Shown here in pieces: positions 6,554-60,073 of a stretch of 64,000 nt of DNA. Origin of the DNA: an uncultured Candidatus Saccharibacteria bacterium. Its GTDB lineage: Bacteria > Patescibacteriota > Minisyncoccia > Phycocordibacterales > 2-02-FULL-43-11. Under the pieces are notes generated by a model. It did no database searches. It saw nothing but the letters and a program-made list of their open reading frames with translations, and was not told the DNA's origin. The translations under genes and the position numbers were made by a program. The stretch spans positions 21,724 through 85,723 of the forward strand of contig CAYGDO010000001.1 of NCBI GenBank assembly GCA_964348785.1. The letters are read 5' to 3'. Every line of letters starts with the position of its first letter. The stretch's first letter is position 1.

Positions 6554-6590
6554 CAAAAAACCTCCGACATCGGAGGTTTTTTGTTAGTTG

Positions 6591-7127
6591 TTATTTAGTC
6601 TTTTTTGCTGAAGCTTTTTTCTTTTTTGGTTTAGAATTTACGTCTTTAACTTCTCCATCCTTATTGGCCAAAGAAGAAACCACGACTTCTTTCAAAGTGG
6701 TCTTATCTTGAACTGGTTTACTAGAAGAAATAGATTTAACAACTTCAGTTAATCTATCAATCTTTGAACTCAATTCTTCAATTTTTTTAGAAAGATTGTT
6801 ATCTCCACCTACATTAGATGTACTTGATCCTCCAAAACTAGATCTTTGAGGTCTATCATTAAACTCTCTTCTGTCACCACCAAATCTTTCTTCTCTTCCC
6901 GCGCCACCACCATTAAGTTTAAAACAATCACTGCAATAAACTGGCTTACCGCTAGTTGGTCTAAAAGGCACTTCACAAGATTTTCCGCACTCGCTACAAG
7001 TGGCCTTATGCATTTCTTTATCAAATCCACCTCCAAAACCACCACTTCTTCTTGGCCCTCCGCCAAAACTAGGCCTACCACCTCTTCCTCCTCCTCCAAA
7101 ACCACCACCTCGATTAAAATTACCCAT
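6591..7127 (-). CDS. Gly/Arg-rich (RGG/GAR-like) protein with CxxC...CxxC zinc ribbon
   Basis: 178 aa; N-terminus GNFNRGGGFGGGGRGGRPSFGGGPRRSGGFGGGFD; CSECGKSCEVPFRPTSGKPVYCSDCF zinc-ribbon; C-terminal Lys-rich tail. Confidence 0.5.
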   Translation of the reverse strand: MGNFNRGGGFGGGGRGGRPSFGGGPRRSGGFGGGFDKEMHKATCSECGKSCEVPFRPTSGKPVYCSDCFKLNGGGAGREERFGGDRREFNDRPQRSSFGGSSTSNVGGDNNLSKKIEELSSKIDRLTEVVKSISSSKPVQDKTTLKEVVVSSLANKDGEVKDVNSKPKKKKASAKKTK

Positions 7128-12350: not shown

Positions 12351-12466
12351 ATTATTTTTTTATCCAATTTTTTGACAAATTAAGAATCCGACACCTGCCA
12401 TTAAATCCTTTATTATCAATGTATTATAACAATTTTCCGCTTATTCACATCAATATATTAAATACC

Positions 12467-12495
12467 ATTGACACTATTAAATTGACGTGGTAATT
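12467..12495 (+). promoter_or_regulatory. sigma70-like promoter TTGACA-N17-TAATTT driving GC-rich cassette gene 1 (contains internal TTGAC direct repeat)
   Basis: cattgacactattaaattgacgtggtaattta; near-identical copy at 13287-13315. Confidence 0.55.
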
Positions 12496-12541
12496 TACTC
12501 TCTAACTTGCCCAACGCGGGCGAGAGTACACCAAGAATCAA

Positions 12542-13159
12542 ATGAGCACACAGGCAAAAACCCCGGAAACCCCGACTCCCAACGCCAAACCCGAACCGCC
12601 GAAGGCCTCCGTGCCTCCGCCGCTACCGAAGCCGTCACTCGAGCAGGTCTTCACGACCCGCCTCGACGCGATCTTCGCAGGCCAGCGGACCCCCGAAGCG
12701 GAGCTGTTCGAGCCCCTCGAAAGGCTCGACCCCAGAAAGCACGAGATCATCGGGATCGTCACCGACCAGAAGAGCCGGGAGCTCTTCTCCCTGGCCCGGC
12801 GACTGGAGGAAGAGCAGAAAGGTGTCCCTCTGGCCCGCAAGCCCGGACAAATCCCCCAACACGAGACCGATGTCGCGACGATCAACAATCAGCGCAAAAC
12901 GGTCTTGAGCCTCTTCTGGCATCATGCCAAAGCAACGGGCATCAAGGCGGGAACGCCCACCGACATGTCGATTGGGATCGTGCAGGGATGGAAACTGGTC
13001 ATTGCTCCCAGTGAGGGAGAAGTCCTCGGTGGACTCGTCGAAATCATGGGCATGGGGCTTCCTCCCGGGCTCCTCGACCACCTCCGTCGCGGTCAAGACG
13101 GTGATCCCGGCGACGACCGCCGGCCCAGCAGGGGCTTCGGTAGCCCCGAAGGCGACTAA
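12542..13159 (+). CDS. GC-rich Pro-rich hypothetical protein, paralogue 1 of tandem cassette
   Basis: 205 aa; shares RLDAIFAGQRTPEAELFEP / DQKSRELFSLARRLEEE block with paralogue 2 (RLAAIFTGATTPKEDLFEP / DQRSRELYSLAQLLKEE); flanked by promoter and terminator on + strand. Confidence 0.55.
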   Translation: MSTQAKTPETPTPNAKPEPPKASVPPPLPKPSLEQVFTTRLDAIFAGQRTPEAELFEPLERLDPRKHEIIGIVTDQKSRELFSLARRLEEEQKGVPLARKPGQIPQHETDVATINNQRKTVLSLFWHHAKATGIKAGTPTDMSIGIVQGWKLVIAPSEGEVLGGLVEIMGMGLPPGLLDHLRRGQDGDPGDDRRPSRGFGSPEGD

Positions 13160-13188
13160 ACCCGCCTCGCTCACCTCGACCCCCTCAC

Positions 13189-13222
13189 GCGCAGCGTCCT
13201 CCCTGGACACTGCGCTTTTTTT
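13189..13222 (+). terminator. rho-independent terminator (GCGCAGCGTCC-TCCC-TGGACACTGCGC + T7)
   Basis: hairpin plus U-run; near-identical copy at 14147-14180. Confidence 0.7.
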
Positions 13223-13286
13223 ATTCAAAATTTTAAATACCCTTCAAAATATTTTTTACTCATTATAATCTCCATATTTTCCATCA

Positions 13287-13315
13287 TTGACACTATCAAA
13301 TTGACGTGGTAATTT
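13287..13315 (+). promoter_or_regulatory. second copy of cassette promoter TTGACA-N17-TAATTT
   Basis: catcattgacactatcaaattgacgtggtaattta. Confidence 0.55.
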
Positions 13316-13376
13316 ATTTTCACTTGGCCAATGGTGGTCAAGAGTACACACAAGAACCAAATCATCAGGCAAAACC

Positions 13377-14114
13377 ATGAATCCTCAACACGAGACACCG
13401 CCCGACAGCGCCAGTGCCGTCCCGAACGAAGTGCCCCCGCCGACCGAAGGCGAGCAACAACAGGGACTTCCTCCTGTGATCGGCCCGGAACTCACCGCCG
13501 CACCGCCCGAACCCCAGGTCGCCGCTGAAGGAAACGATGCACCCCCGACCACGAAACCGGCGCCGGAGACTCAGCCGGCACCCTCGCTGGCGTGGGTCTT
13601 CATGAATCGCCTGGCCGCGATCTTCACGGGAGCAACCACCCCGAAAGAGGACCTGTTCGAGCCGATCCAGGACTACGGCTTCGACCGAATCGACGGACTT
13701 GAATTCGCCGGCGTCATCCACGACCAGCGGAGCCGGGAGCTCTACTCCCTCGCACAGCTCCTCAAGGAAGAACGGGGCTCCCTCCGTCAACCCCGCAAGT
13801 CGAAAGAGGTCAAAGACCACGACCTGCGGAGTGCGATTCTCCAGGAGCAAGAGAAACTCGCCATGGCACTCTTCGTCCAAGCGGTCAAAGCCGAACTGCC
13901 GAAGGCCGACGTTAACGACCTCACTATCGCTGTGTTCGAGGACTGGCGAGTCGGCGTCGCAAGGCAAGACAATCAGGATGGTGGTTTCCAGTCCCGTCTC
14001 GCCGAGGCCATCGGCCTTCCGCCGGAGCTCATCGCCCATCTCAGTCGCCGTTCGCGCGACGAAGACCCCCACGCTCGCGAAGAGCGACTCTACCCCGGTG
14101 GCGGACGCGGTTGA
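13377..14114 (+). CDS. GC-rich Pro-rich hypothetical protein, paralogue 2 of tandem cassette
   Basis: 245 aa; paralogous to 12542-13159 at protein level with synonymous-type nucleotide divergence. Confidence 0.55.
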   Translation: MNPQHETPPDSASAVPNEVPPPTEGEQQQGLPPVIGPELTAAPPEPQVAAEGNDAPPTTKPAPETQPAPSLAWVFMNRLAAIFTGATTPKEDLFEPIQDYGFDRIDGLEFAGVIHDQRSRELYSLAQLLKEERGSLRQPRKSKEVKDHDLRSAILQEQEKLAMALFVQAVKAELPKADVNDLTIAVFEDWRVGVARQDNQDGGFQSRLAEAIGLPPELIAHLSRRSRDEDPHAREERLYPGGGRG

Positions 14115-14146
14115 GTGATTCTCTCCAGTCCGAATCGACCTCTCGC

Positions 14147-14180
14147 GCGCAGCGTCCTCCCTGGACACTGCGCTTTTTTT
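14147..14180 (+). terminator. rho-independent terminator, copy 2
   Basis: gcgcagcgtcctccctggacactgcgcttttttt. Confidence 0.7.
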
Positions 14181-14212
14181 ATTCAAAATTTTTTATGCTC
14201 TTAACTAAAAAA

Positions 14213-19147: not shown

Positions 19148-20548
19148 TCAACCAGAAAGAAGGTATCCGATGGCATCTGATGCTGTGTATGAGCCACGCT
19201 CGTGCGTCATTAACTGGCGCAAATACGCATGATCTTTCCCGAGCGTGACAATTGCAGATTCTCCTGGACTGCCGAGACCTACGGTCGCGGTCAACCCATT
19301 ACAAAGGCACCTAGCACCAATTGTATCTTCGGCTCGCCCACCCAGTCGTCCGTAATCACTAACAGGTTGTGCCCTGCAACGAAAACCGATTTCACCATCA
19401 GGTCTCTGATATGCGACTGACAGCGCGCACAAGTCACACACGCGAGGTCGATCTTCGTACACCTTTGCATCTGACAACGTGCCAGGTAGTTGCACTACCT
19501 GGAATGGAAACCCTGTAGGAGACGCGTTCGGATCGCTTAGGACCTCGAGTTCCCCCCGAAAACCCAGACGCCGAATTTCATTGCGATACTGTGACAAAAT
19601 GCCAGAATTATCGGAAAGCGCAAACATAGAGCCCACCTGAATTCCTGTTGCACCAAGATCTTGGGCTTCTCGTAGTCCAGCCGGAGAAGCAAGACTACCC
19701 CCAATCCAGAACGGGCGACCTAAATCGCGAATCTTTTGAAGGTTCGGCACATCACGTACGCCATAGACTGGTTCGCCTCGCGGATTCAATACCAACTGAC
19801 CACGAGGTGATGCATTATGTCCACCAGCACATTTTTTCTCAACGACAAATCCATAAATACCATCTCCAAGGCGTGCGTCCATTGCCATCGCAAGCACGTG
19901 AGATGAGACAATTGGCAAAAATAGCGGACGTGTTAGTCTCGGAAGCTTGTCTCCGAAATACCTCCTCGGATCAAAGTGAACCTCAATGTAACCAAGTGAA
20001 CTTCCTTCAACTACAACGCGGTACACCGCCGGCTCTCCTTTTGCGTATGCATCAAGTACTCCCGGCACCATCATGGGAATACCTGCTCCCATCGTCACGA
20101 CATGAACACCCGCAAGCATCGCGCCGTAAAGCTGGGCAAGAAGCATACACTGCATTTTCTCGAGCAAATTGATGCTGATTAATGCGCTGTGATCTTCCTT
20201 TGCCAACCAAACAATGGCGAATGTTGAAGCGACAGTAAGCTCAACCAGATCTGGACTTGGATTGAGATGAAATGCCGGCACAGGCTTAAACTGCTCTCCC
20301 TGTGCAATTCCACCATCAACGTAATACTTGCTGACAATCCTATCCGCAACACCTGCAAAAGGAAAATGCGCAAGTGCTCGCCTGAAGTGGCCACCAACAT
20401 CTCCCAGCTGAAGAATGCGCGACACCACAAACCAAGACGCAACACCGCTAACTGTAGACAAAACATCTGGAGATTTTGCACCTTCTTGTGCCAAATCCTT
20501 ATTAGAAACAGCGACACCCATACCGCCGATGATTATTCTTTTGTTCAT
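19148..20548 (-). CDS. nitronate monooxygenase/FabK-like NAD(P)H-dependent flavin oxidoreductase family protein (GC-rich)
   Basis: 466 aa; IIIGGMGVAVS N-terminus and GATGIQVGSMF TIM-barrel FMN motifs; AAAGGTG RBS. Confidence 0.5.
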   Translation of the reverse strand: MNKRIIIGGMGVAVSNKDLAQEGAKSPDVLSTVSGVASWFVVSRILQLGDVGGHFRRALAHFPFAGVADRIVSKYYVDGGIAQGEQFKPVPAFHLNPSPDLVELTVASTFAIVWLAKEDHSALISINLLEKMQCMLLAQLYGAMLAGVHVVTMGAGIPMMVPGVLDAYAKGEPAVYRVVVEGSSLGYIEVHFDPRRYFGDKLPRLTRPLFLPIVSSHVLAMAMDARLGDGIYGFVVEKKCAGGHNASPRGQLVLNPRGEPVYGVRDVPNLQKIRDLGRPFWIGGSLASPAGLREAQDLGATGIQVGSMFALSDNSGILSQYRNEIRRLGFRGELEVLSDPNASPTGFPFQVVQLPGTLSDAKVYEDRPRVCDLCALSVAYQRPDGEIGFRCRAQPVSDYGRLGGRAEDTIGARCLCNGLTATVGLGSPGESAIVTLGKDHAYLRQLMTHERGSYTASDAIGYLLSG

Positions 20549-20640
20549 AGCTCACACCTTTCTATCAATGAACTGTTAGAGTTGTTTAAAGTCTCACTCG
20601 CTAAATAATAACAGTTCTAAAAAAAATAATCCGAAGAAAT

Positions 20641-24865: not shown

Positions 24866-26347
24866 CTAAGATAATTTCCGAACAATTCCCTTATCAGCAT
24901 CAACTTCTATTATATCGCCATCTTTCAAAACTTTAGTAGCAATTTTAGTGCCAATAATACAAGTTTTATTTAATTCTCGACTGACGATCGCTGCGTGGCA
25001 AGTAATACCACCTTCATCAGTCACAATTGCACCTGACCTTTTCATAAGCGGAACAAATTCTGGCCTTGTCATACCAGTAACCAATATATCACCGTCTTTA
25101 AAATGTCCACCGAGTTCTGCATCAAGAATAATTCGTGCGATACCACGCACCTTACCCTTACAAGCAATCTGTCCTTTTATGATGTTTTCAACAGCCGGCT
25201 GTTCCAATTTAATATGATGCTCATTAATTTCTTTTTTTATTTCAACAAAATTATCATAATTAATTTTTATATCACCGTTAAACAACATATATATTATGTA
25301 ACCATCCGCCCTTTTTTCAATTTCTTTTTTAATAGATTTTATAAACTCAACACCTTTTGTAAGTTCCACAGTTGGCAAGACAAATCCAATATATTTTGGA
25401 TCAATACTTGCCTCTTTAAATATCCTTTCGGCTATACGCCAATTTACAGTTAAAACTTTAGCGAAAAAGTTTTTACGACGATCACGCACACGCATTACAG
25501 TCTGACAATAATCAGCAATGACTTTTTCTTCATCTAATAATTCTTTATACCACTTATTATATTCTTCAAGATTTTTTTTCTCATTAAAAAGAATCTCTTG
25601 CCTTTTATTTTCTGCATCAACTGTGTTTATGTCTCCGTATTTACTCATTAAACGTTTCCGAACTTCTGGCAACAATTGCACATCCCTGTAAGTTGCATAA
25701 AAGAATTGGCAATCTTCAGCTATCTCGGAAATCGTTTTACCTTGCGCAAGTAATGACAACCCAAAATATTCTTGCTCTCCGTCAAAAGATCTAAATATAG
25801 GCACCGTGGCTTTTTCCCATAATTTATCTAAATTTTCTTTTGTGATTGGATACTTTTTAGAAGAAAGAACGTTTGCGCACAATTCTTTATCAAAATAAAG
25901 CGAAAAATATAAAGATGAGTTAGAAATGTGAATTAAGTCAAAAGCTTTTTGTATCAATGGGTAAAGCACCTCTATGTTTTCATTCTTTATACGTTCATAT
26001 GTATATTCTTTATATATTTCATCAACCTGTCTTTCATTTTTGAGAAAATTATCTTCAAGATTTTTTGTAAAAAAACGATCATCCAAATAACGATTAAAAC
26101 CCTCTATTGAGTCATTAACAATTGGGTTCGTAGGTAAATATACCGTCAAGCTTTCTCCGTCATTTATATTTAACGCGGAATAATTAAAATGTTTCGTATA
26201 CGGTGTAAGTTTAAAATATTTCTCAGTATTAAATCCTGAACTAAAATAAAAAAGCCCGCAATTATTCATGGGCCATATTTTACCGGTACCCACATCCCCT
26301 AAAAAACCTTCTAAAATCTGTTGTTCTGTATTTCTTGAAATCATCAA
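24866..26347 (-). CDS. PEP-utilising-enzyme mobile (phosphohistidine swivel) domain protein with novel N-terminal domain (paralogue G)
   Basis: 493 aa; C-terminus [46 protein letters not shown] matches PEP-utilizers mobile domain with catalytic His. Confidence 0.7.
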
Positions 26348-28088: not shown

Positions 28089-28109
28089 TTACAAACTGGG
28101 GGACTTGGA
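28089..28109 (-). repeat. 21-nt direct copy of tRNA-Gln 3' end (TTACAAACTGGGGGACTTGGA), about 180 bp downstream of the tRNA
   Basis: identical to 28271-28291. Confidence 0.8.
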
Positions 28110-28277
28110 ACGTGATTACACTTCTCGACTTCGACTCAAAGTTCGCCGTCTCTCACTTTGGTCTAGTCACCAGCTCGTCCGTTTCTTTTACTAAAGAAAC
28201 ATGACTCCGCTGTTCGAGTCCAAGTCGTAAGCAAAGCAGTTTACTTACTTCCCCACAGTTTTTCACTGCGTTACAAA

Positions 28278-28348
28278 CTGGGGGACTTGGACTCGAACCA
28301 AGATACTAGGCTTCAAAGGCCCATGTCCTACCATTAGACGATCCCCCA
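28278..28348 (-). tRNA. tRNA-Gln (anticodon TTG)
   Basis: Reverse strand folds as cloverleaf: acceptor TGGGGGA/TCCCCCA, D arm GTCT..GGAC, anticodon stem TGGGC/GCCTA with loop CTTTGAA, T arm CTTGG-TTCGAGT-CCAAG, discriminator G; CCA not encoded. Confidence 0.8.
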
Positions 28349-28577
28349 ATATTTAAAACTCAATCCTATACATTCAATCTTCACATTCGCCCTTCTGGGC
28401 TCAGTACTCCTTCGTTCTCACTCGGTCGCTGGGCTCAGTGTTTCCTCACACCACAAGGGCACTTCCAATTTCATAGTCGCTTCACTCCTTGAAATTTAGG
28501 TCGCTCTCGCTCGGTCATAAAATACCTTTTTTTGGTTAAAATTTCAACCCGATTTCTTATATTTGATATTTAATTTT

Positions 28578-29618
28578 TTACTTTTGATTTTGTTCTAGCG
28601 TCTCCACCACAGCTATCTCAAGCGGAATAGCGGGCATATCAGAACGAGCAGATTCGCCTTGAGCGACAAGAAGTCGGGACAAAGTTTTAGAAGTTATTTT
28701 TTCGCCATTTTTACCAGCAAGATTTTGAATAAATTTAAAATCTTCTTCAGAAAATTCTTGCTTCTTTGTTTCAATCAACTCCGGAGCAAAACGTAAGAGC
28801 ATAATTTGTCTAACTTTTTCAATCACTAAATTCAAAAAAACTTTAAAATCAAAATTACCCACTTCAACATCATTGATTACAGAAAGCGCTTTTGAAACTT
28901 CCCCACCAGCCAAAGCCAAAATAAAATCCTGGACCAAAGATTTTTTTGGAGCACCAGAAATAGACACGACATCTTCTTCTGTAATTTTGCTTTTCTTTGA
29001 TAAAGAAATGGCTTTTTGCAAAACCCCATGCGTATCACGAAAAGAGCCATCTCCCAAAACCACAATCAAATCAACTGCTTCTTTTTCTATTTCAAAACCT
29101 TCTTTCTTTGCCACTTTTTCAACCATCTGTTTCAAGATGGCATGATTTGGTTTTTTAAACATAAAATGCTGACATCTGGAAAGAATAGTTTCTGGCAATC
29201 GATCAGGTTCGGTTGTAGCTAAAATAAAAATGACGTGCGAGGGTGGTTCCTCAAGAGTTTTTAAAAGCGCATTAAATGCTTCTTTAGTCATCATATGAGT
29301 CTCGTCAACAATATAAACTTTATATTTTGATTCAAAAGGTAAAGTTAAAACGGCCTCTTTTAAAGCCCTTACTTCATCAATGCCTCTATTTGAAGCAGCG
29401 TCCATTTCATAAAGGTCATTATTTGAAGTACCAATAGCTTTTGCAAAAATTCTAGCAACAGAAGTCTTGCCTGTGCCACGTCCGCCAGAAAATAAATAAG
29501 CGTGAGAAATTTTCTCCTCTTTTATAGCACTTTTAAGAGCTTTAACTATATGCTCTTGTCCCAAAACTTCATCAAATTCTTGAGGACGATATTTTCTATA
29601 AAGCGATAATTCCGACAT
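28578..29618 (-). CDS. dnaX: DNA polymerase III subunit gamma/tau (short form)
   Basis: 346 aa; YRPQEFDEVLGQEHIV, GGRGTGKTS Walker A, IVDETHMM Walker B, SRC sensor. Confidence 0.75.
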   Translation of the reverse strand: MSELSLYRKYRPQEFDEVLGQEHIVKALKSAIKEEKISHAYLFSGGRGTGKTSVARIFAKAIGTSNNDLYEMDAASNRGIDEVRALKEAVLTLPFESKYKVYIVDETHMMTKEAFNALLKTLEEPPSHVIFILATTEPDRLPETILSRCQHFMFKKPNHAILKQMVEKVAKKEGFEIEKEAVDLIVVLGDGSFRDTHGVLQKAISLSKKSKITEEDVVSISGAPKKSLVQDFILALAGGEVSKALSVINDVEVGNFDFKVFLNLVIEKVRQIMLLRFAPELIETKKQEFSEEDFKFIQNLAGKNGEKITSKTLSRLLVAQGESARSDMPAIPLEIAVVETLEQNQK

Positions 29619-29769
29619 AAAAAGATTATAACATAGGATAAATTATCAATTTCCCACTCTATTTTATTTGGCAAAATAGGAGCAATAACCAATTTTCTAA
29701 GACCTAGCAGACTAACATCAATAATTAAATTCTTCAATTTAAGAAATAAAAAAGGATTGAATAAACAAA

Positions 29770-29925
29770 CTTTCAATCCCTGCCTTTGTCCGCAGTAGGA
29801 CCACCGGGCAAATGATATGCCCAACCGGAAGTTATGGGGTTCCCCCAAGCGTCAGTAGGACGTCCATCGGTGGAGCTCTTACGACTGCCACCTTTGCGTC
29901 TCGGTTTCCGAGGGTGGTTTTTCAT
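29770..29925 (+). ncRNA. candidate structured small RNA (unclassified) with intrinsic terminator
   Basis: AT-rich promoter-like region 29650-29760 then GC-rich segment with nested stems (CCACCG...CGGTGG, GGGCA...TGCCC) ending CCACC-tttgcgt-CTCGG-tttc-CGAGG-GTGG-TTTTT. Confidence 0.3.
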
Positions 29926-30145
29926 TCCAAATAAATTTTATCAAATATTTAAAAATATGAAAATAGAAGGGGTCGACCAAAATTACAAACTGGTCGACCC
30001 AGACACATTGCCCCTGCCTGTTTTGGGCGAACGCGTCTTAAATGTGGGAGAGTGACTTTGCCCTTAGTCGTAGATGTGACTTTGCCTTTAGCCACTCTGA
30101 AGATGATTTCATCCCACACAACTCAACTAAACCTATAATACGTCT

Positions 30146-30195
30146 TTAAAATATAAAAAGAAAGTCCCGAGGCCTGCGCGCACCTCGGGACCAAT
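30146..30195 (-). terminator. rho-independent terminator on minus strand (GTCCCGAGG-N10-CCTCGGGAC + T-run)
   Basis: perfect 9-bp stem followed on minus strand by TTTCTTTTTATATTTT. Confidence 0.55.
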
Positions 30196-30399
30196 CAGGA
30201 TGGAACAAGTTCAGCGTCAATGCAAAGACGCCGGGATGAGTGAGCCTTGGATGCTCTAGAGGAGTCTCATCTCTCCTTTTCGGAGGAAGGGCAGATGCCC
30301 GACCAAACGTCGTCTTCGACAAACCTTCCTCCTAGAAACCAGCAACCTCAAAACAACCCATATAAATCATAAACCTAGTAAAATAAAAGTAAAGGGGCG

Positions 30400-30435
30400 G
30401 TCGCATTGCGAACGACCGCCCCCGAACTGCAGACC
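30400..30435 (-). terminator. rho-independent terminator on minus strand (GGGGCGGTCG-loop-CGACCGCCCC + TTTACTTTTATTTT)
   Basis: perfect 10-bp GC stem, T-rich tail on minus strand. Confidence 0.55.
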
Positions 30436-30639
30436 AACCGATCCCCACTTTTCAGCGTGCCAAGAAGTCACGACAAGGGATCGGCTCTGACAGTCATCCT
30501 CCAAGCTGTCCCGTTAAAGACGCCAAGAAGAAAAGACTCCAGAAAAGAGCTGGAAAGTTCGAGCGCAAATTACGGCGAAGAACCGGATAGCTCAAACTGC
30601 TCTCTAAATGAATATGATGAACCTGATTTTAAAAAAGTA

Positions 30640-30675
30640 AAGCACCGCCCCGATTTTATCGGGGCGGTGCTTACA
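30640..30675 (-). terminator. terminator of the 544-aa surface-protein gene
   Basis: GCACCGCCCCGAT-aaa-ATCGGGGCGGTGC followed on minus strand by TTTACTTTTTT. Confidence 0.65.
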
Positions 30676-30681
30676 TGACTG

Positions 30682-32316
30682 TTATGAATTCAAGTATGGA
30701 CAATTTGTAGCAATTTCAGAAGTCATTTTTACTTTGCCAGTTTTAACATCCTTTGCATCTGGACATACAAATTTTGGTCTTGGACTTGGAAGCTGGATAT
30801 TTTTATAGTTCGTACTCTTCTTACAAACAATATCGTTTATTTTAGCTTTCGTAGTTATATACACACAACCAGTTGAACAATCTAATCCCCAACTTTCTTT
30901 CAAAACATCAAGCGCATATCTTTCTTGGAATTTTCTGACAATTTCAAATGTTGCATCATCATAAAGACCGGTAATCTTGATGTCGTATCCTTCATAATCT
31001 CTTAAGAATTTCTGAAGTTTAATAACTTCACTCTTTGCATCACCAAATCCACAACCAAGATAAGTTTTAAGATAAGGTTCACAAGGAGCGACAGGTTTAA
31101 CAATAGGTTTAGACTTTACAGCCTCAACAACTGTTGCCACCTGACTTTTAGTTTTTACTGAACCATTATAAACAGACCCCGTTTGCTTACTACCGCTAAA
31201 AAACGATCCTGATCTAGTTCCACCATTAAAAACAGATCCTGACTGTCCGCCTCCGCTAAAAATAGATCCTGAATCGTTACCATCATTTCCAACAGAAGAT
31301 AAATCTGTATTACCGTTTTGATCGGAACCATTTCCATAACTATCGCTATCCAAGTTCCCACCAAAAATATTATCTAAATTATTATTATCATTACCAAGAG
31401 AACCGTTATCACTAGAATCATTTCCACTTGAACCAGAATCTAAATTATTGTTTCCATAAGATAAATTAGTTTGACTTCCTGAACCATAAGAATAATTCCA
31501 GTATGAATCAGAATTTATAGAAGAAACATTTATCGCAACATTACCGCTTGAAATATTACCAGCTTGAATTGGCACAGAGTTACCCAAATTATTATTTCCA
31601 TTATTAAAGGAATTATTATTTGCAGATTGATTATTCAAAGAATTATTCAAAACTCCCCCAGTTTGAGAATTAAAATTAGAAGATGATTGAGAATTATTAA
31701 CACCGTTATTTTGTGATTGATTATTAGCTGAACCGCCTGAAACACTATTATTACCAGTAGTATTATTTAGTGATGATTGCGAATTAGAAGAATTATTATT
31801 TAAAACGCTATTACCAGTAGTTATATTATTAGCTGAATTAACATTTTGATTATTGTTAGAAACCGTTCCGCTTCTGTTAGTAGAACTATTTTGATTATTA
31901 TTTTGAGTAATACCAGATGACAAATTAGCATTCGATGAAGAAACGCTTGGAGTAATGCTGTTAGAAGCCGGTGACGGTCTCATTGCACTAATACCAACAC
32001 CCACAGAATTTGAATTGGAATTACCAACATTACTTTGAGTATCAAAAACTGAAGAAGCACCATGGCTTTGAATTTCAGAAGCACTAAATCCGTAAAAACT
32101 TAAAGGTTTCACTCCATCTGAAAAACTATTTTGTGTTGGAGTCGAACCGGTTCTAGGTAAAGGTTCAGAAGCTCCAGGAATAATCTGATAGTTGATTGTA
32201 TTGTCAGCAAAAATTGAAACTGGAAAAACCATTAATAACAAAACTGCAAAACACATAATTTTGCCCAAAAAATTCAAAGCAATTCCTCTTTTTACCGTAA
32301 AAATGTTTATACTCAT
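30682..32316 (-). CDS. secreted/cell-surface protein: signal/TM, long Ser/Asn/Gly-rich low-complexity region, C-terminal peptidoglycan-binding (PG_binding_1-like) domain and Cys-rich tail
   Basis: 544 aa; ...LKTYLGCGFGDAKSEVIKLQKFLRDYEGYDIKITGLYDDATFEIVRKFQERYALDV matches PG-binding domain. Confidence 0.6.
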   Translation of the reverse strand: MSINIFTVKRGIALNFLGKIMCFAVLLLMVFPVSIFADNTINYQIIPGASEPLPRTGSTPTQNSFSDGVKPLSFYGFSASEIQSHGASSVFDTQSNVGNSNSNSVGVGISAMRPSPASNSITPSVSSSNANLSSGITQNNNQNSSTNRSGTVSNNNQNVNSANNITTGNSVLNNNSSNSQSSLNNTTGNNSVSGGSANNQSQNNGVNNSQSSSNFNSQTGGVLNNSLNNQSANNNSFNNGNNNLGNSVPIQAGNISSGNVAINVSSINSDSYWNYSYGSGSQTNLSYGNNNLDSGSSGNDSSDNGSLGNDNNNLDNIFGGNLDSDSYGNGSDQNGNTDLSSVGNDGNDSGSIFSGGGQSGSVFNGGTRSGSFFSGSKQTGSVYNGSVKTKSQVATVVEAVKSKPIVKPVAPCEPYLKTYLGCGFGDAKSEVIKLQKFLRDYEGYDIKITGLYDDATFEIVRKFQERYALDVLKESWGLDCSTGCVYITTKAKINDIVCKKSTNYKNIQLPSPRPKFVCPDAKDVKTGKVKMTSEIATNCPYLNS

Positions 32317-32456: not shown

Positions 32457-33587
32457 TCACCACCCGAGACGAAAGAAGCGTGAGGGCTCGAGTGCTCTCC
32501 CCACAACCACACCACGGTCGTAGATCGGGACTGTCCCGATATTGACCGGGTACTTGCCCGGCCAAATGGGATAGTCATAGACAGGAGCCCACGGACCCCG
32601 AGCGTCCGTCGCTGAGTACAATCGGGCCTGCTGGCTCCCGGTCGCTTGGAAGTCCATGAAGACTTGCCCCGCCCGAGAAATTTCCAACGTGAACGAAATC
32701 GGTGGCGAATAGCCCACCGGCAGGTCCAATCGGAGTTCCGCGAGGAGCTTTCCGGTAATGGCGCCCCAAACCCGATACCAGAAAACGTACTTGTTACAGG
32801 ACTGAAAGTCCCGTTGAATCTGGTAAAGATCACCAGAATACCTGGCCTCCTTGGCGGTGTAGAAACCGAGGGAATACAACTCATTCACACCCTGATAGTC
32901 AGGACCGGCCCGGATTGACTTGTCGTCACTCGTGCCCTTCCGACCATCGGGTCCGTATTGCACTCCTTGATTGGCGAAGCCGTAATCACCCAACCCGTAA
33001 TTCCAGAAGCTGTCGGTCCAGGGGTTTACTCCCCGAGAACCGTACTCGACTCGCTCGAGATTAACCGGCTCCGGCGATTGACGAATGGCGAGAAGTGCCA
33101 CCACTCGTGTACCCTGTTGAATGCACTCTTCGGATCGCAACTCCTGATTTCTCCAGAATCGAACGTTGCTTCCAGTGGCATCAACGAAGTCGTGCCACGC
33201 CAGTCCAGCGACCGGTGTAAAATCGGTAGGGGTATTCTGAACCGGGCTGGCCCCGCGTCCAGTCTGCAACCAACGCATGGCGTTCAAATTCCATGCATCC
33301 ACCGAGCATTCGGATGCCGGCGAAACGGCAATAGTGATGTCAGCGATGACTCCCGCGGCAAGGTAATTATTGGCAGGAGGGATTCCTTGCTTGGGATACC
33401 AGTCCCAGCTCTTCCAATCCTCCGCCCACGGATCCGTATCCGTGTAGAAGTGGATGGGCGCCGGTGTCCCGCACCCGTCACACCCGATAGTGGCCGGTTG
33501 GGTCACCGCGCCACCAATGGTGGCTTGGCCGAAGAGGTTGAGAACGAAACCGAAGACGAATCCGAGGGTAACGATACTGGTTTTCAT
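32457..33587 (-). CDS. GC-rich secreted hypothetical protein (Trp/Tyr/Gly-rich)
   Basis: 376 aa with N-terminal signal peptide; strongly GC-biased codons unlike neighbours. Confidence 0.5.
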   Translation of the reverse strand: MKTSIVTLGFVFGFVLNLFGQATIGGAVTQPATIGCDGCGTPAPIHFYTDTDPWAEDWKSWDWYPKQGIPPANNYLAAGVIADITIAVSPASECSVDAWNLNAMRWLQTGRGASPVQNTPTDFTPVAGLAWHDFVDATGSNVRFWRNQELRSEECIQQGTRVVALLAIRQSPEPVNLERVEYGSRGVNPWTDSFWNYGLGDYGFANQGVQYGPDGRKGTSDDKSIRAGPDYQGVNELYSLGFYTAKEARYSGDLYQIQRDFQSCNKYVFWYRVWGAITGKLLAELRLDLPVGYSPPISFTLEISRAGQVFMDFQATGSQQARLYSATDARGPWAPVYDYPIWPGKYPVNIGTVPIYDRGVVVGRALEPSRFFRLGW

Positions 33588-34087
33588 GGATTTCTGAGTG
33601 TCGAGGGTTGTTTGTGAAAAAGTTTTTTCGCTTCTTCCCTTATTTTTTTAGAAAAGAGCGAAACTCATCTCTTATTACTATAAAATTGACGAAAAGTCAA
33701 TGATATTGGGAATGAAAAAATGAAATCAAATTATGCTATTTTATTAATAAAATATTTTTACAAATTTACTATTTTTTCACACATACACCATTTTTTCGCT
33801 ATAGTGAAAAAATGGTGTATAGGTATTTGTTGTTTAATTGTTGTTTGAAATTTATTCACCCTAAAAATTTTATGGAAAATATTTTTTAACTATACTTTCT
33901 TTATAAAAATCAAAAAACAAATGCTTTGTAAAATAACTGTTGTTCAGTAATAAAATTGGGGGTCCATCCTATAAACTTTTTTGACATGTAAAATTTAGAA
34001 ACAAATCTAAAAATGTACAAAAGCAAAAGATAGTTTATAAAAAAGTTTTTAGGATAAATAAAAAAGACCCAGCATCTAGGACCCTTC

Positions 34088-34130
34088 AGGGGGATCTTTC
34101 GATGCTGGGTTCGCAAACGTGTGGTTGAGG
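34088..34130 (-). terminator. rho-independent terminator on minus strand
   Basis: ACCCAGCATC-loop-GATGCTGGGT followed on minus strand by CTTTTTTATTT. Confidence 0.55.
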
Positions 34131-34240
34131 CGGCCCGCCCGCTCCGTAGCGGGGATGAGTTATTTTCGGGGCTGATCATCACAGCCCTGAGATCTCGAGT
34201 TCGAGTTGCATGAGGAAGGTCCTCTGCGCGCCGGGGGACT

Positions 34241-34360
34241 TCAGGCGATGATGCCGATGGCGACGCCGATGGCCGTGGACGCGGAATTGACGATGGCGCT
34301 CTTGGTGCCGATGGTGTTCACGGTGATGTGCGCCGGGGGCGCGTGTTCGGTGGGCTTCAT
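34241..34360 (-). CDS. candidate 39-aa GC-rich small hydrophobic peptide (MKPTEHAPPAHITVNTIGTKSAIVNSASTAIGVAIGIIA)
   Basis: GAGGA 8 nt upstream of ATG; terminator about 110 nt downstream; alternative longer ORFs overlap in other frames. Confidence 0.3.
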   Translation of the reverse strand: MKPTEHAPPAHITVNTIGTKSAIVNSASTAIGVAIGIIA

Positions 34361-34511
34361 GGTGTTTGTCCTCGAGCTTGGTCGCGAATCTGCCCAATGC
34401 GGAGTTAGTGCCACACCAGTGACACACCTTTGGCAAAAGCCTTAGGTCGATAACTTGCAAAGAGCTGGGCAACCAAATAAAAATGCTACACCTGCCCCAA
34501 AAACCTGTCAA

Positions 34512-34523
34512 CCCCGTTAGAAG
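34512..34523 (-). repeat. CTTCTAACGGGG motif copy flanking GC-rich island at 34.1-34.5 kb
   Basis: accccgttagaagtaggacacgg. Confidence 0.55.
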
Positions 34524-34569: not shown

Positions 34570-35556
34570 TTATTTGAGTTTTAAATTTTTGATACTAGCT
34601 TTTATCAAACCTGCTACTTCTTTAGCAGAATTACAATTCATAAGTTCAATACGAAGTTCCTTTGCACCGTCAAATCCGCCACAATATGCCTTAAAATGTT
34701 TTTTCATAATTGCAAAATTTTTTCGCCCTTTAAACATTTTTTCAAACAATAAAGTATGCTCTCTTAAAACTTCCAATTTTTCTTTTGGAGAAATTGGAAG
34801 TTTTTTTCTTTTATTAAAAAGCCAAGGATTGCCAAAAATCGCTCTTCCCAGCATCACACCGTCTGCACCCGAATATTTTGCTTTCTCTTTTGCATCTTTT
34901 AAATCTTTTACATCCCCATTCCCCACTATCAAAGTTTCTGATTTTAATTCATCTCTAATTTGTACGGCTTTCTTGACCATATCCCACCTAGCTGGAACGA
35001 GTGACATTTCATTCCTGGTTCTTGCGTGTACGGTAATGACAGCAGGTTCCGTTTCAAGTAGTGCTTTAAGCCAGGTATCTAATTCGTCTTTTGCATAACC
35101 AATTCTTGTTTTTACAGAAACTGGAATTTTTTTGCCCGCAAGTCTAACACCCTCTTTAGCAGATAAAATAATTTGTTTAGCCAAATCATGATTTTTTATA
35201 AGACAAGCGCCTGCGCCACTTTTTTCAATTTTTCTTTCAGGGCAACCCATATTTATATCAATACCATCAAAACCCATTTTAGCTACCATTTTTGAGGCTT
35301 TTTTCATTGCGAGAGGATTTCCACTAAAAAGTTGAGCGACGATTGGCTTTTCCTTTTTAGAAAAAATTAAATTCATCATCAAAGCTTTTTTACCGTCTTT
35401 ATGGCACAGACCATCAGCTGAAGTAAATTCAGTCCAAGTAACATCGGGTTTACCGTATTTAGTAATAATCTGTCGAAAAGCGGCGTCTGTAACATCCGCC
35501 ATGGGCGCAAGACAGAAAAACGGTTTTTTCAATTTTTTCCAAAATCCTAATTCCAT
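34570..35556 (-). CDS. dus: tRNA-dihydrouridine synthase
   Basis: 328 aa; CLAPMADVTDAAFR, FMN TIM-barrel motifs, catalytic Cys region. Confidence 0.8.
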   Translation of the reverse strand: MELGFWKKLKKPFFCLAPMADVTDAAFRQIITKYGKPDVTWTEFTSADGLCHKDGKKALMMNLIFSKKEKPIVAQLFSGNPLAMKKASKMVAKMGFDGIDINMGCPERKIEKSGAGACLIKNHDLAKQIILSAKEGVRLAGKKIPVSVKTRIGYAKDELDTWLKALLETEPAVITVHARTRNEMSLVPARWDMVKKAVQIRDELKSETLIVGNGDVKDLKDAKEKAKYSGADGVMLGRAIFGNPWLFNKRKKLPISPKEKLEVLREHTLLFEKMFKGRKNFAIMKKHFKAYCGGFDGAKELRIELMNCNSAKEVAGLIKASIKNLKLK

Positions 35557-35634: not shown

Positions 35635-37014
35635 TTACGCGTACTGGTCCGGTTTCCCTGGAACAGGATCTACGGACCGATACACTTCGAGTCTCAACCT
35701 ATCAACCCTGAAAATCGGGGCGAGCAGACGAAAGAGTCGTTCGTTTCGAACCGCATGTGATTTCGAACTAGCAGAGGTAAATAGATACTTAGACATATCT
35801 CTGCCAGAAAGAATTGAGGCGACGCCACTCTCCGCCGTAAGCAAGCTGGTCAAGACAATGTAGAAATGCACATCAAGCACCAACCTCTTTCGGGCCGGCA
35901 ACTGACAAGTGCAGTCCGCGTCCAAACCTGCCATTTCAACGAAAGAAGTGATGACATTGTCCACCGCTTCAGAGAGTGGGAATGACAGATTCCCCTCAAA
36001 GAACAATCGCTGGCTGTCCGCTGACAGAAAGCGATGAGTCTCTCCCTTCTCGTCAATCAAGCGATAGAAACGGCTAGGATCAGAGTTCGAGATTTCCTTG
36101 AGCACCCGCCTCAATCGTTCTTCGCCCAATGACCGAAACAAGAACGCCGAAGCCAACTCCACCTGCGGAAACATCACTTTGGTTGCGGCGACGTGGAAAG
36201 CAAACGGGCTCGCCGCCCGCAGGGCAATCCCCGGCAAACCATGATTCAAACTCTCCGGTAAGGTCCTGCTGGACCAGCGTGCAGAACCCGGCCAAAGGTT
36301 CTCATCGTCGGAAATGCGCACCCCAACACAATGGCACACACTGTGACCTTCGTTGTACGCACGTTCCATGAACTCGTGCATGAGAACCTTGCGCCCAGTA
36401 CGCGCCACCTCTTCAGGATTGGCACCGTGCCAAGAGCCAACGTGAGTCGTCCGAATACAACTTGGCGGGAGACCACTTATGTCTTTGTAGCCAGCATCGA
36501 CTACGACAAACAGTTTTTCCTCCTTCCTACGTGAGTCATCACCGTAAGGCCAGATGCAGAGATGATCGGCCCTGTCAGTCCAGTTCCTGCCGTGGAGCAC
36601 CCAAGTACTGATGATATTCCTAGCTAGACTATCCAAACGGCGATCAGTGTATTCCCTCCTCGTTCCCAACTTCCAAATGGCTGGCGAGACATTGGCGTAC
36701 CGACCAACTGAAAGGACCCAGATATCTCCCTCCTGCCTCGCGTCTTTCATCGAGCACGAGCAACTTTCAGGAGCATCCTCAAGAAACAAGCCCTCTTTCC
36801 GACCCAGAACGAGAGCAAGAGGCCTGGTCTCGCCAGTCACTTTAAAAGTCACCTGGCCTGTCCACTCACCGTCACCTGAAGATGAAAAAGAAAGTCCGAC
36901 CTGATCGGTGGAAAAGCCTCCAGCGATTTTTCTGAGGATGACCTCCGCGACCCCGCCCGAGTTAGCCGAGATAACCGACACCAACTCACTACCAGGTTTA
37001 ATTGTCGTTGTCAT
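35635..37014 (-). CDS. GC-rich hypothetical protein (about 459 aa from ATG at 37014)
   Basis: Track ORF extends to 37167 but upstream extension is AT-rich and contains a terminator hairpin (GGGCCC-tcaaacg-GGGGCC+TTTTCTT at about 37090-37120); no family recognised. Confidence 0.5.
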   Translation of the reverse strand: MTTTIKPGSELVSVISANSGGVAEVILRKIAGGFSTDQVGLSFSSSGDGEWTGQVTFKVTGETRPLALVLGRKEGLFLEDAPESCSCSMKDARQEGDIWVLSVGRYANVSPAIWKLGTRREYTDRRLDSLARNIISTWVLHGRNWTDRADHLCIWPYGDDSRRKEEKLFVVVDAGYKDISGLPPSCIRTTHVGSWHGANPEEVARTGRKVLMHEFMERAYNEGHSVCHCVGVRISDDENLWPGSARWSSRTLPESLNHGLPGIALRAASPFAFHVAATKVMFPQVELASAFLFRSLGEERLRRVLKEISNSDPSRFYRLIDEKGETHRFLSADSQRLFFEGNLSFPLSEAVDNVITSFVEMAGLDADCTCQLPARKRLVLDVHFYIVLTSLLTAESGVASILSGRDMSKYLFTSASSKSHAVRNERLFRLLAPIFRVDRLRLEVYRSVDPVPGKPDQYA

Positions 37015-37361
37015 TGCTTGCCTTGTTGTTTTGCCTGTTTTCGTCAAAGAACTTATCGCCCGTCTCCACACGGAGTAGCGATTAAGAAAAGGCCCCCGTT
37101 TGAGGGCCCGTTTCTTCAATTGATTTTTGCAATAAGAGAAACCGACCCTCAAACTTGTGGGGACCAAAAGCTAAAATAAAAGTTTGCAGTTCGGAATTTC
37201 ATAGTTATATATAAATCATACATAATCGTTTTTTTATGTCAAATGTAAAAAATCCACACCCCAAGGTCACACCTCCTATAAAAAACACTGTCAAACTAAG
37301 AGTGATTTTAAGATCTATATATGTAAAAAGTACAAAGTTCGACCTTGTAAGTAATTTGGTT

Positions 37362-46134: not shown

Positions 46135-46833
46135 ATGAACGAACAGACAACCTTCGGTGGACTCAACCTCAACAACCTGGACCGCACGCCGATCTGGTTG
46201 AGAGAAATTATCGGGCACCGCGATTTTGCTCAAGCCCTAGCATGGGCTGAGGCCCAAAAGAACCGGAGCGATTCCTACCACAAATGGGGATGGCGAGTTG
46301 CGCTGCTCGGGATGATTTTGACACTTCTCATCTTAGGGTTCTTTGGCCTAGCACTAAAGCATAAGTTCGAGATTCCCCCGCAAAGCGTGATGACCTTGTT
46401 TTTCTTACCGGTCATCATAATCTCTGTTGGGCTATACCTGCTCTATACATCCAGTGAGCATAAGCGCAAGGCTAACGAAGCCTTGAAGACAGAATTTTTC
46501 AAGATCACTCCGTTCATTGACCTGCTCACAGAGCTAGGGCTCGGACACATTTTGGTGACAGAATCCCACCACGGAGTGGGAAAGGAAGTCGAGATAAAAT
46601 TGATTGAATTCGCAGAGAGAGTCCTCAGTCTGGAAATTGAGTTCTCAAAGATCAGGTCAAGAGGTACCGGAATGGAGGGTTTTACCGATTTAATGCAGTT
46701 TGGTGATGGAATTCGCCAATTCAGGGGACTGTTAAACGGACTATGTGGTCATTTTGTACCCTGGAAGATGCCCTTCCAAATCGGACAGATTTTCAACAAA
46801 GCGGAAAACAGGATCCCCAAACCCGCCGCCTAA
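46135..46833 (+). CDS. membrane protein, hypothetical (moderately GC-rich)
   Basis: 232 aa, 2-3 TM segments, terminator at about 46850-46885. Confidence 0.45.
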   Translation: MNEQTTFGGLNLNNLDRTPIWLREIIGHRDFAQALAWAEAQKNRSDSYHKWGWRVALLGMILTLLILGFFGLALKHKFEIPPQSVMTLFFLPVIIISVGLYLLYTSSEHKRKANEALKTEFFKITPFIDLLTELGLGHILVTESHHGVGKEVEIKLIEFAERVLSLEIEFSKIRSRGTGMEGFTDLMQFGDGIRQFRGLLNGLCGHFVPWKMPFQIGQIFNKAENRIPKPAA

Positions 46834-53594: not shown

Positions 53595-54236
53595 ATGAAC
53601 ACCACACCCAAAATCTGGGAATTGGTCAGTGTCCTTATCCTCGCCCGGCACGGCAAAGCCGTCGCCGCCGAAGGTCGCCCAGACGCCGAACGCAAGCTCA
53701 ACGAACTCGGGATCGCCCAGGCCAACGCCCTCGGCTTCTCCGTTCAAAAGCTCGAGATCGACATCGTTCTGTCATCCCCGCTCAAGCGGGTGGTGAGCAC
53801 CATGCGCACCGCGACCAACGACACTATCCCGATCCATCCGGTCGCCGAACTCACCTGCTCGGATGATCCGATTGACCCGATCCAGATCATGTGGGGCAAG
53901 CTCGGCAATGTCCCCATCTCTCGATACTTCGCTGAGGCCGCCGGCGAATATCTCAAGGTCTGGGGGCAAACAGCCCTCGGTGCCATCATCCGCGAACTCC
54001 AAAATGGCGGACACGACCAGAAGGTTCTCGTCGGCGGACATGCCGTTCTCCAGAATGCCCTCTTATGGGCAATCTCCCAGTCAGTCTCCGAGGACTGCTG
54101 GGCGGCGGCAGGAATGGACGAGGTCAATGAAATAGCCTGCCAAAACCTTCTCGGAGAAGGCGAGGCCTTCGTCCTGAGATTCCCATCACATGAGGCCGGT
54201 GTCACCACATGTGAACACCTCCGCCCCATGGCGTAA
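53595..54236 (+). CDS. histidine phosphatase superfamily protein (SixA/PGM-like), GC-rich
   Basis: 213 aa; LILARHGKA (RHG), SSPLKRVVSTM, VGGHA motifs; TTGACT-N17-TATTGT promoter-like upstream. Confidence 0.6.
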   Translation: MNTTPKIWELVSVLILARHGKAVAAEGRPDAERKLNELGIAQANALGFSVQKLEIDIVLSSPLKRVVSTMRTATNDTIPIHPVAELTCSDDPIDPIQIMWGKLGNVPISRYFAEAAGEYLKVWGQTALGAIIRELQNGGHDQKVLVGGHAVLQNALLWAISQSVSEDCWAAAGMDEVNEIACQNLLGEGEAFVLRFPSHEAGVTTCEHLRPMA

Positions 54237-58632: not shown

Positions 58633-58645
58633 AAAATTTACTTAA

Positions 58646-60040: not shown

Positions 60041-60073
60041 TTTTCATTTAGCAGACAAAGTCTTAATCAGTCT

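Follow-up and report, generated by a model that had tools for sequence, protein, structure and literature searches.

Analysis of a 64,000-nt stretch of contig CAYGDO010000001.1 from an uncultured Candidatus Saccharibacteria bacterium (referred to below as the window; coordinates without a contig handle are positions within it) revealed that the gap directly upstream of dnaX is probably made up of three independently transcribed, terminator-bounded genes of structured small RNAs (sRNAs; units A, B and C) and one orphan gene of a small protein (unit D). The gap is an array of separate, unrelated units and not a single RNA. It contains intrinsic terminators and promoter-like boxes, units A–C hold no conserved open reading frame (ORF), covariation of paired positions is present in units A and B, and unit D carries a coding signature. 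The RNAs of units A–C are most likely previously undescribed and outside any known RNA family. From the positions of the promoters and terminators we infer that the units are transcribed, with the ends given below for units A–C (folding z-scores are relative to shuffled sequences).

29619–30681: gap upstream of dnaX (1,063 nt), flanked by dnaX and a gene encoding a 544-amino-acid (aa) PG_binding_1 protein
30385–30607 (minus strand): unit A, candidate sRNA of ~220 nt, 50% GC, ending in terminator T2; folding z-score −4.0
30155–30359 (minus strand): unit B, candidate sRNA of ~205 nt, ending in T3; folding z-score −2.0
29962–30128 (minus strand): unit C, candidate sRNA of ~165 nt, ending in T4; folding z-score −4.8
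29773–29925 (minus strand): unit D, predicted 50-aa protein gene (MKNHPRKPRRKGGSRKSSTDGRPTDAWGNPITSGWAYHLPGGPTADKGRD), ATG 9 nt after the −10 box, nearly leaderless mRNA predicted; folding z-score −2.2

In the proposed arrangement the four units would form a head-to-tail array of independent small genes, all on the dnaX strand, each with a sigma-70-type promoter inside the preceding T-tract, a GC-rich body of ~150–220 nt and a strong intrinsic terminator. Units A and B, and less surely unit C, would produce stable, highly structured non-coding RNAs of ~165–220 nt, which we infer most likely act in trans, by protein binding or base-pairing; unit D would produce a lineage-restricted, basic protein of 50 aa. 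The units may be individually dispensable accessory genes, and their selection differs among close strains: some have A and others A′, C alternates with C2 and D with another unit, and one relative has two to three additional units.

Searches of genome and metagenome contig collections with dnaX yielded nothing closer than 54–55% identity. The dnaX product was closest to proteins of Patescibacteria/Parcubacteria metagenome-assembled genomes (54% identity for the best species-representative genome) and about 56–60% identical to proteins named Yonathbacteria, Nomurabacteria or Parcubacteria. Close relatives were retrieved through a large protein index (contigs designated by L numbers). The dnaX genes of L164–L169 are 93–94% identical to that of the window at the amino acid level and 82.5% (BLASTN) or 86% (global alignment) at the nucleotide level. 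Those of L171–L173 are 96–97% identical (aa), with only 240–360 nt of upstream sequence available, and that of L170 is 83% identical (aa), with 125 nt upstream. L176 and L177 were retrieved with the full-length protein encoded upstream of the gap; its C-terminal 144 aa, used as the query, gave no contig. L177 originates from the same sample as L171. L176 and L170 were taken as one organism, because they come from the same sample and their contig ends overlap at a palindrome.

The latter two contigs meet in the palindrome ACACTTTACTTAAGTAAAGTGT (L176 7190–7217, L170 1–22), ~100 nt upstream of dnaX. Contig ends lie within the array in L171–L173 and L177 too, an indication of repeats or of heterogeneity among strains at this locus.

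Composition and terminators of the gap

The window has a GC content of ~33% and densely packed genes, and positions 29619–30681 are its longest stretch without a credible long ORF. Since the genomes of Patescibacteria, or candidate phyla radiation (CPR) bacteria, are small, a non-coding stretch of 1 kb requires an explanation. The GC content of the gap rises to 0.57–0.59 in 100-nt intervals, compared with 0.27–0.38 in the flanks. A first-pass annotation had described a GC-rich, hairpin-dense gap of ~1 kb beside dnaX; the GC profile, the terminator scans and the folding z-scores bear this out, and every hairpin that it listed was found in the sequence (T1, T2, T3, the palindrome at 29970–30000 and the helix 30282–30290/30324–30332).

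Five terminator-like sites were found in the gap, compared with 1.6±1.3 in shuffled sequences. A stricter scan detected 14 strong hairpin-plus-T-run sites in the 64 kb, five of which are inside this 1 kb. The stems of T1–T4 are 11–15 bp long with 7–10 GC pairs, and are followed by T-rich tails.

30640–30672 (minus strand): T1, 15-bp GC-rich stem, loop AAA, then TTTACTTTTTT; predicted terminator of the 544-aa PG_binding_1 gene
30393–30423 (minus strand): T2, 12 bp, GGGGGCGGTCG...CGACCGCCCC, then TTTACTTTTAT; predicted terminator of unit A
30163–30192 (minus strand): T3, 11 bp, predicted to end unit B; the tail CTTTCTTTTTATATTTT continues into promoter P_C
29970–30000 (minus strand): T4, palindrome GGGTCGACC, then CTTCTATTTT; predicted terminator of unit C
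29748–29779 (minus strand): weak AT-rich hairpin, GGATTGAA...TTCAATCC then T6, overlapping the unit D stop codon (from the sequence and the minimum free energy (MFE) fold)
29887–29918 (plus strand): hairpin with a T-run, antisense to the first codons of unit D (ATGAAAAACCACCC...)

Terminator hairpins are present at matching positions in L164, L176 and L177, with compensatory pairs in T3 and T4. At the position of T1, the relatives have a perfect hairpin with a wholly different stem sequence, followed by an identical CTTTACTTTTT. T2 is kept in L164, L177 and L176, and in the last of these the stem is altered by paired changes (GGGGCAATCACG/CGTGATTGCCCC). The T3 zone (30193–30138) is the most conserved block of the region (80% identity with L164), and its stem shows an A-U to G-C compensatory change among the relatives. 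The hairpin at 29748–29779 is the probable terminator of unit D; at the 3′ end of this unit L176 carries a different hairpin, GGGGACTGATTGATTTCAGACCC, followed by TTTTT.

Terminators had initially been assigned to both strands. Four or five are indeed found on the minus strand. The plus-strand hairpin at 29887–29918 lies opposite the initial codons of unit D, so that its likeness to a terminator is probably incidental; the counterpart in L176 (6796–6775) is retained only through conservation of the coding sequence on the other strand.

Promoter-like boxes and leaderless starts

A promoter-like box was identified directly 3′ of each terminator, overlapping the T-tract of the latter.

30614–30641 (minus strand): P_A, TTTACT (30641–30636), 16 nt, CATCAT (30619–30614); overlaps the T1 T-tract
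30366–30393 (minus strand): P_B, TTTACT, 16 nt, TATGAT; 9/12 match
30140–30135 (minus strand): −10 sequence TATTAT of P_C, box form CTTTCTTTTTATATTTT...TAT(T/A)AT after T3
29935–29963 (minus strand): P_D, TTTTCA, 17 nt, TG-n-TAAAAT (extended −10)
29616–29633 (minus strand): predicted dnaX promoter, TGTTATAAT, 6 nt, ATG (leaderless start)

The box that follows T1 and T2 has the form CTTTACTTTTT-N-(G)GT(T/C)(C/T)AT(C/G/T)AT and is invariant or nearly so in four lineages, among which CTTTACTTTTT...GTTCATCATAT does not vary. The counterparts of P_B are TTTACT-16-TATCAT in L176 and TTTACT-16-TATTAT in L177. Scanning the window for TTTACTTTT-N13-YATSAT gave two occurrences, P_A and P_B, compared with 0.13 expected, and a near-identical box (TTTACTTTTTAATTCATCAT, 7 nt, ATG) precedes the gene at 22315. 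P_D is represented by TTTG(A/C)TAAAAT in L164 and by TTGTTACAAT in L176, and the dnaX sequence TG-n-TATAAT-N6-7-ATG is kept in five of six relatives.

Inspection of the regions preceding the genes showed that the motif TAnnnT ends 4–10 nt before the start codon of 29 of the 50 window genes (background, 14%), and that Shine-Dalgarno sequences are almost absent. The −10 hexamers near the starts and the scarcity of Shine-Dalgarno sequences thus make leaderless mRNAs appear to be the rule in this organism; judged by these motifs, the mRNAs of most genes are probably leaderless. At the predicted 5′ ends of units A, B and C there is no start codon, which weighs against coding, since leaderless starts appear to be the rule here.

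The relation of terminators to promoters bears on an alternative that we regard as improbable, namely that A–C are processed or read-through 3′-untranslated-region products of the PG-binding gene, or a multi-terminator leader tuning the expression of unit D and dnaX. The units are co-oriented with both flanking genes, with no gaps between them, and the overlap of terminators and promoters could allow read-through. However, the terminators are strong (11–15 bp, GC-rich, with a good T-tract) and each is followed by a conserved −35/−10-like pair; dnaX has a conserved, predicted leaderless promoter of its own, and the unit content varies among strains while dnaX and its promoter stay constant.

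Structure and conservation of units A, B and C

Four lineages could be compared for most of the array, and two for unit A. The orthologue of unit A in L176 (5866–6091; body alignment z-score 8.0) belongs to a relative whose dnaX is 83% identical. In the RNAalifold consensus of these two sequences all 44 pairs are kept, nine of them by compensatory changes, compared with at most one in slid controls. Three of the nine are in the long helix of the unit (15 bp), formed by 30491–30474 with 30447–30433.

In unit B, the minus-strand sequence GGAGGAAGG (30332–30324) pairs with CCTTCCTCC (30290–30282) to form helix H1. This is followed by a conserved GAAAA linker (30281–30278, the last A opening H2) and by the 5-bp helix H2 (30277–30273 with 30264–30260). 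The alignment was trimmed to a common 8-nt prefix, as global MAFFT alignment of the whole units misplaced the helix arms. The nine pairs of H1 are formed in all four lineages (36/36 cells paired), with changes on both sides in six of the nine; H2 is formed in three of the four, with one G-C to U-A exchange. None of 500 shuffles reached the values observed for H1 and H2 together (14 pairs), and when the partner strand was slid by 1–3 columns, pairing was found in only 43–57% of the cells. Many of the kept pairs, U-G pairs of H1 among them, are of the G-U type and would read A-C in the complementary strand; the constraint is therefore on the minus-strand RNA. A minus-strand transcript of ~250 nt between the terminators at 30400 and 30150 had been proposed previously; it corresponds to unit B, whose H1 carries the compensatory changes in four lineages.

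Orthologous pieces of unit C were found in L177, L172 and L173 (z-scores 9.5–15.9). L176 unit 4 has only the terminator in common with it (loop GTTTGTAA and one compensatory pair). Unit C carries two copies of the direct repeat GGCAAAGTCAC; the direct repeat GTGACTTTGCC reported in the first-pass annotation is present at 30052–30067 and 30076–30091. The support for unit C as an sRNA is weaker than for A and B.

Six-frame comparison revealed no reading frame common to the lineages and no preferred frame in units A–C. Where blocks of nucleotides are conserved, their frames differ, and the indel lengths are not divisible by three. It is thus very improbable that these units encode small proteins like unit D, even though the latter has the same architecture and short ORFs occur in every unit (e.g. 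a hydrophobic one of 33 aa in A and one of 58 aa in B): no such ORF is kept in any relative, no frame is preferred, the indels do not come in threes, and the predicted start sites lack start codons where leaderless starts are usual.

The suggestion of unannotated structured RNAs is therefore supported for the minus strand, by the covariation in units A and B. In the comparison with related genomes that had been recommended, covariation was seen for H1 of unit B and for the helices of unit A; the body structure of unit C is not clearly conserved.

Unit D, a predicted small protein gene

The gap had been considered to contain no convincing ORF, which is wrong for 29773–29925 on the minus strand, where a conserved 50-aa gene is located. 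Its orthologue in L176 (6767–6931) encodes 54 aa. The frame-specific blastp comparison gave E = 3e-27; other frames gave mostly 1e-7 to 1e-10, and the mirror antisense frame 3e-20. Comparison of the two genes showed 21 identical codons, 17 with synonymous changes only and 13 replacements; the differences are distributed 12/8/24 over the three codon positions, the indels are whole codons, and both the start and the stop are kept in frame in L176.

The predicted protein is basic and hydrophilic. No Pfam family matched it at E ≤ 10, and a search of 1.84 billion representative proteins returned only its own cluster. By these coding signatures, unit D is a real protein gene and a lineage-restricted orphan. 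The plus-strand sRNA formerly predicted at 29770–29925 is actually this minus-strand coding ORF, and the AT-rich segment 29650–29760, read as its plus-strand promoter, is the 3′ flank of the unit D ORF together with the leaderless dnaX promoter.

Turnover of units among relatives

The gap measures 1.1–1.5 kb in every lineage and is filled with co-oriented units bounded by terminators. All-against-all comparison of the unit bodies distinguished the following families:

Family A: window unit A and L176 unit 1
Family A′: L177 unit 1 and L164 unit 1, with a weaker match to L176 unit 2 (z-score 4.0); absent from the window
Family B: all four lineages
Family C: window, L177, L172 and L173; L176 unit 4 by its terminator only
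Family C2: L164 unit 3 and the dnaX-adjacent unit in L172 and L173
Family D: window unit D and L176 unit 5

The L176 array comprises six units. The sequence upstream of dnaX in L171 is entirely different, including the dnaX promoter and first codons. Units have thus been gained, lost or replaced between strains whose dnaX is 83–97% identical. The bodies are ~50–70% identical between lineages and the promoter boxes are invariant.

Among more distant bacteria, L174 (dnaX ~60% identical) has at least four hairpin-plus-T-run units before dnaX; in L175 (also ~60%) one GC-rich unit of 250 nt, carrying a strong terminator, separates a Dus gene from dnaX; and L001 has small protein genes with terminators at the pre-dnaX position. 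These three loci showed no sequence similarity to the window units and no Rfam match. The pre-dnaX position seems to host small accessory units across the clade, while the genes themselves are not conserved. In L175, three tandem AT-rich repeats of ~43 nt (AAAAATAAGTAAATAACATTCTTTTGTTTTTGCATTTTTCTT; 2570–2700) were observed just upstream of the GC-rich unit.

The main rival explanation is that the array is decaying foreign DNA: the bodies would be remnants of horizontally acquired small genes, with the persisting terminators and promoters insulating dnaX from upstream transcription. We consider this unlikely. The swapping or loss of units between strains with dnaX 94–97% identical, the nearly neutral divergence of the bodies against L164 and the small protein genes with terminators at the same position in L001 are consistent with decay. 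So is the observation that, outside the gap, nearly every strong terminator of the window stands behind an ORF with a GC content at third codon positions (GC3) of 0.57–0.75, compared with ~0.25 for native genes. However, compensatory changes are present within the bodies (H1 of unit B, the long helix of unit A), which points to selection on RNA pairing and not on the terminators alone, the promoter boxes are invariant, and there is no frame remnant common to the lineages. In addition, the bodies keep a GC content of 43–52% in every lineage under strong AT mutational pressure, compared with ~18–30% at native third codon positions and ~20–25% at silent sites of native genes; this maintenance relative to AT-rich native silent sites argues against neutral decay.

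Several considerations weigh against the reading of units A–C as functional sRNA genes. The promoters and transcript ends are predictions, and the comparison covers only four lineages, or two in the case of unit A, whose structure was predicted from the same two sequences that were used for counting its pairs. Within 174 kb of related loci, a covariance model built on unit B (R1) matched the four orthologues and no further copy. Beyond the terminator, little of the body structure of unit C is conserved (window versus L176). No target or partner was found for the units, and their complementarity to the rest of the window was not above chance. Finally, given the rapid evolution of the bodies and the loss of units in some strains, any function would be non-essential.

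A further possibility, which we regard as rather unlikely, is that the locus is a dedicated, recombination-prone "cassette rack", in which unrelated promoter–structured RNA–terminator modules and tiny ORFs are inserted, lost and exchanged among strains via their conserved terminator/promoter junctions (CTTTACTTTTT..., CTTTCTTTTTATATTTT). If so, the set of stable RNAs available to episymbiotic Patescibacteria would vary, and might serve in host interaction or as anti-phage decoys. In the arrays of L174 and L175 it would then be the type of locus that is conserved, and not the genes. No match, and no phage or plasmid link, emerged from exact-pattern scans of viral contigs or from blastn searches against phage and plasmid collections.

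Search for known RNA families and element classes

The scan of the whole window with Rfam 15 at gathering thresholds detected two tRNAs only. Permissive scans (29500–30800 at E ≤ 10, the window at E ≤ 1, the arrays of relatives at E ≤ 0.5) added only terminator-type chance matches, such as a PyrG leader (28.7 bits, cut-off 65) and an AT-rich mitochondrial large-subunit rRNA artefact. ARAGORN found two tRNAs and no transfer-messenger RNA (tmRNA) in the window. As far as these searches can tell, none of signal recognition particle (SRP) RNA, 6S RNA, RNase P RNA, tmRNA or a riboswitch is present in the gap. This agrees with the initial failure to recognize SRP RNA, RNase P RNA or tmRNA, and the Rfam scan then proposed identified no known family in the gap, so no single family covers the region.

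SRP RNA was rejected, as no covariance-model match was obtained in 29500–30800 (E ≤ 10), in the window (E ≤ 1) or in the loci of the relatives. As an essential conserved gene it is also ruled out by the units themselves, each of which is 50–70% identical, absent or replaced where dnaX is 83–97% identical. RNase P RNA was excluded by the absence of an Rfam match in the window. No covariance-model match to 6S RNA was found by Rfam in the region or the window, and the MFE folds, compared with the end-to-end 6S rod and its large central bubble, are chains of separate hairpins plus a free-standing terminator (single-sequence prediction). A riboswitch or cis-acting leader was dismissed: there was no Rfam match, and units A–C end at strong terminators followed by a new promoter-like box rather than an ORF.

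Two further classes of elements were considered and rejected. In the case of a type I toxin-antitoxin cassette, the unit D protein is basic and hydrophilic, and neither a conserved hydrophobic ORF nor an antisense promoter was found. With regard to repeat arrays (CRISPR, TIGR, type III ToxI), repeats are limited to two promoter modules of 28 nt and one 16-nt pair; BLAST comparison of the region with itself gave no matches except the T1 hairpin against itself. No enrichment of GGAGG/CCTCC, a clue to ribosome mimicry, was seen.

Linkage of SRP RNA to dnaX is established in Firmicutes and Actinobacteria. This general knowledge, together with the GC-rich, terminator-ended units also found before dnaX in L174 and L175, would favor one unit being a very divergent housekeeping RNA (SRP RNA or 6S RNA) beyond the reach of the Rfam models. 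Such an identity is scarcely probable. Even the permissive Rfam scans gave no match and ARAGORN no tmRNA; the units are 50–70% identical where dnaX is 83–94% identical, and each is missing in some strains, unlike an essential RNA. Moreover, the predicted folds (from single sequences) consist of multiple hairpins, with no closed rod.

Comparison with known systems

Units A–C resemble trans-encoded sRNA genes in having predicted promoters of their own, intrinsic terminators, lengths within 50–300 nt, conserved hairpins and no conserved ORF, and in being lineage-restricted, fast-evolving and packed in an intergenic region (IGR). Listeria LhrC1-5 and the tandem AbcR1/2 are reportedly clustered or polymorphic loci of this kind. 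Unlike these, the present candidates are unrelated to one another and unusually GC-rich relative to the genome, and their host is a Patescibacteria-type organism.

In AT-rich genomes, GC-rich IGRs have been used for the discovery of non-coding RNAs (Stav et al. 2019, PMC6429828; DIMPL, PMC8723152; Narunsky et al. 2024, PMC11109978). A long GC-rich IGR of an AT-rich genome containing structured RNA is the signal that these pipelines exploit, and the gap shares it. It differs from their candidates in giving no Rfam 15 motif match and in comprising several predicted transcription units and a small ORF rather than one motif or riboswitch.

The position of the structured RNA candidates immediately upstream of dnaX, on the same strand, is like that of SRP RNA (ffs), but there is no detectable signature, conservation is low and each unit is absent from some close strains. 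With type I toxin-antitoxin and small-ORF cassettes the array shares the tandem ~200-nt units with predicted promoters and terminators, the strain variation and the one tiny protein. In contrast to type I systems, unit D encodes a basic, hydrophilic protein instead of a membrane peptide; neither an antisense promoter in convergent orientation nor an RNA overlapping the unit was seen, and the units are not repeats of one another.

Other features of the window

The genes flanking the gap are:

28578–29618 (minus strand): dnaX (Pfam DNA_pol3_delta2/AAA/gamma3)
30682–32316 (minus strand): gene of the 544-aa, secreted-looking PG_binding_1 protein, the upstream neighbor of the gap

A GC-rich segment (55%) of ~420–450 nt was noted at 34058–34520 (minus strand), between a Dus-like gene (34570–35556) and the next gene. 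It contains a promoter-like site, TTGACA-17-TAGCAT, and a long terminator hairpin (~34103–34062). By eye, it is ~75–80% identical to L176 2512–2953, with long identical blocks, a higher conservation than that of the array units. Neither a preferred reading frame nor an Rfam match was found; it is possibly a larger conserved non-coding RNA.

The 3′ end of tRNA-Gln (28277–28349), CCAAGTCCCCCAGTTTGTAA, is repeated ~180 nt downstream (28089–28290, minus strand), resembling the att-site duplication left by an integrating element. L164 has ~1.4 kb extra at this site, including a PIN_12 gene, and a 186-nt block there is 97% identical between the window and L164, whose genomes are ~82% identical.

GC-rich islands (50–63%) are located at 12400–14200, 19150–20550, 32457–33587, 35635–37167, 46135–46833 and 53595–54236. 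They are mostly ORFs with GC3 of 0.57–0.75 (0.41 for the ORF 19148–20548), compared with ~0.25 for native genes, and most lack a Pfam domain; from their composition they look horizontally acquired. Strong GC-rich terminators accompany those at 32457–33587, 35635–37167, 46135–46833 and 53595–54236, mostly directly downstream. Two tandem paralogous GC-rich ORFs of 205 and 245 aa (12542–13159 and 13377–14114, plus strand), with Pro/Glu/Ala-rich N-termini and similar cores, form part of a ~1.8-kb island with an internal duplication; the genes around them are on the other strand.

Six tandem paralogous genes (428–683 aa) occupy 54441–63722 (minus strand). A conserved ~200-nt block at the 3′ end is common to these genes and to a distant copy at 24866–26347 (minus strand), which carries a PEP-utilizers domain in the source annotation. 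A perfect 22-bp hairpin (6545–6592), situated where a plus-strand gene (end, 6553) and a minus-strand gene (end, 6591) converge, forms a bidirectional terminator and gave rise to spurious weak Rfam matches (rimP leader, a miRNA).

Significance

Literature searches found no description of sRNAs, regulatory RNAs or leaderless mRNAs in Patescibacteria/CPR. The gap yields two candidate sRNAs with covariation (A and B), a weaker one (C) and a predicted orphan protein of 50 aa, all of which were missed by annotation. The prevalence of leaderless starts, if general, matters for gene calling in this group. The signal of a GC-rich island in an AT-rich genome works in this lineage, where the island corresponds to several compact genes. 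Fast turnover of the units may partly explain the assembly breaks at this site (contig ends of L170–L173, L176 and L177). That near-identical strains differ in the units present identifies the locus as an accessory one with rapid turnover, and is relevant to the strain-level ecology of these bacteria.

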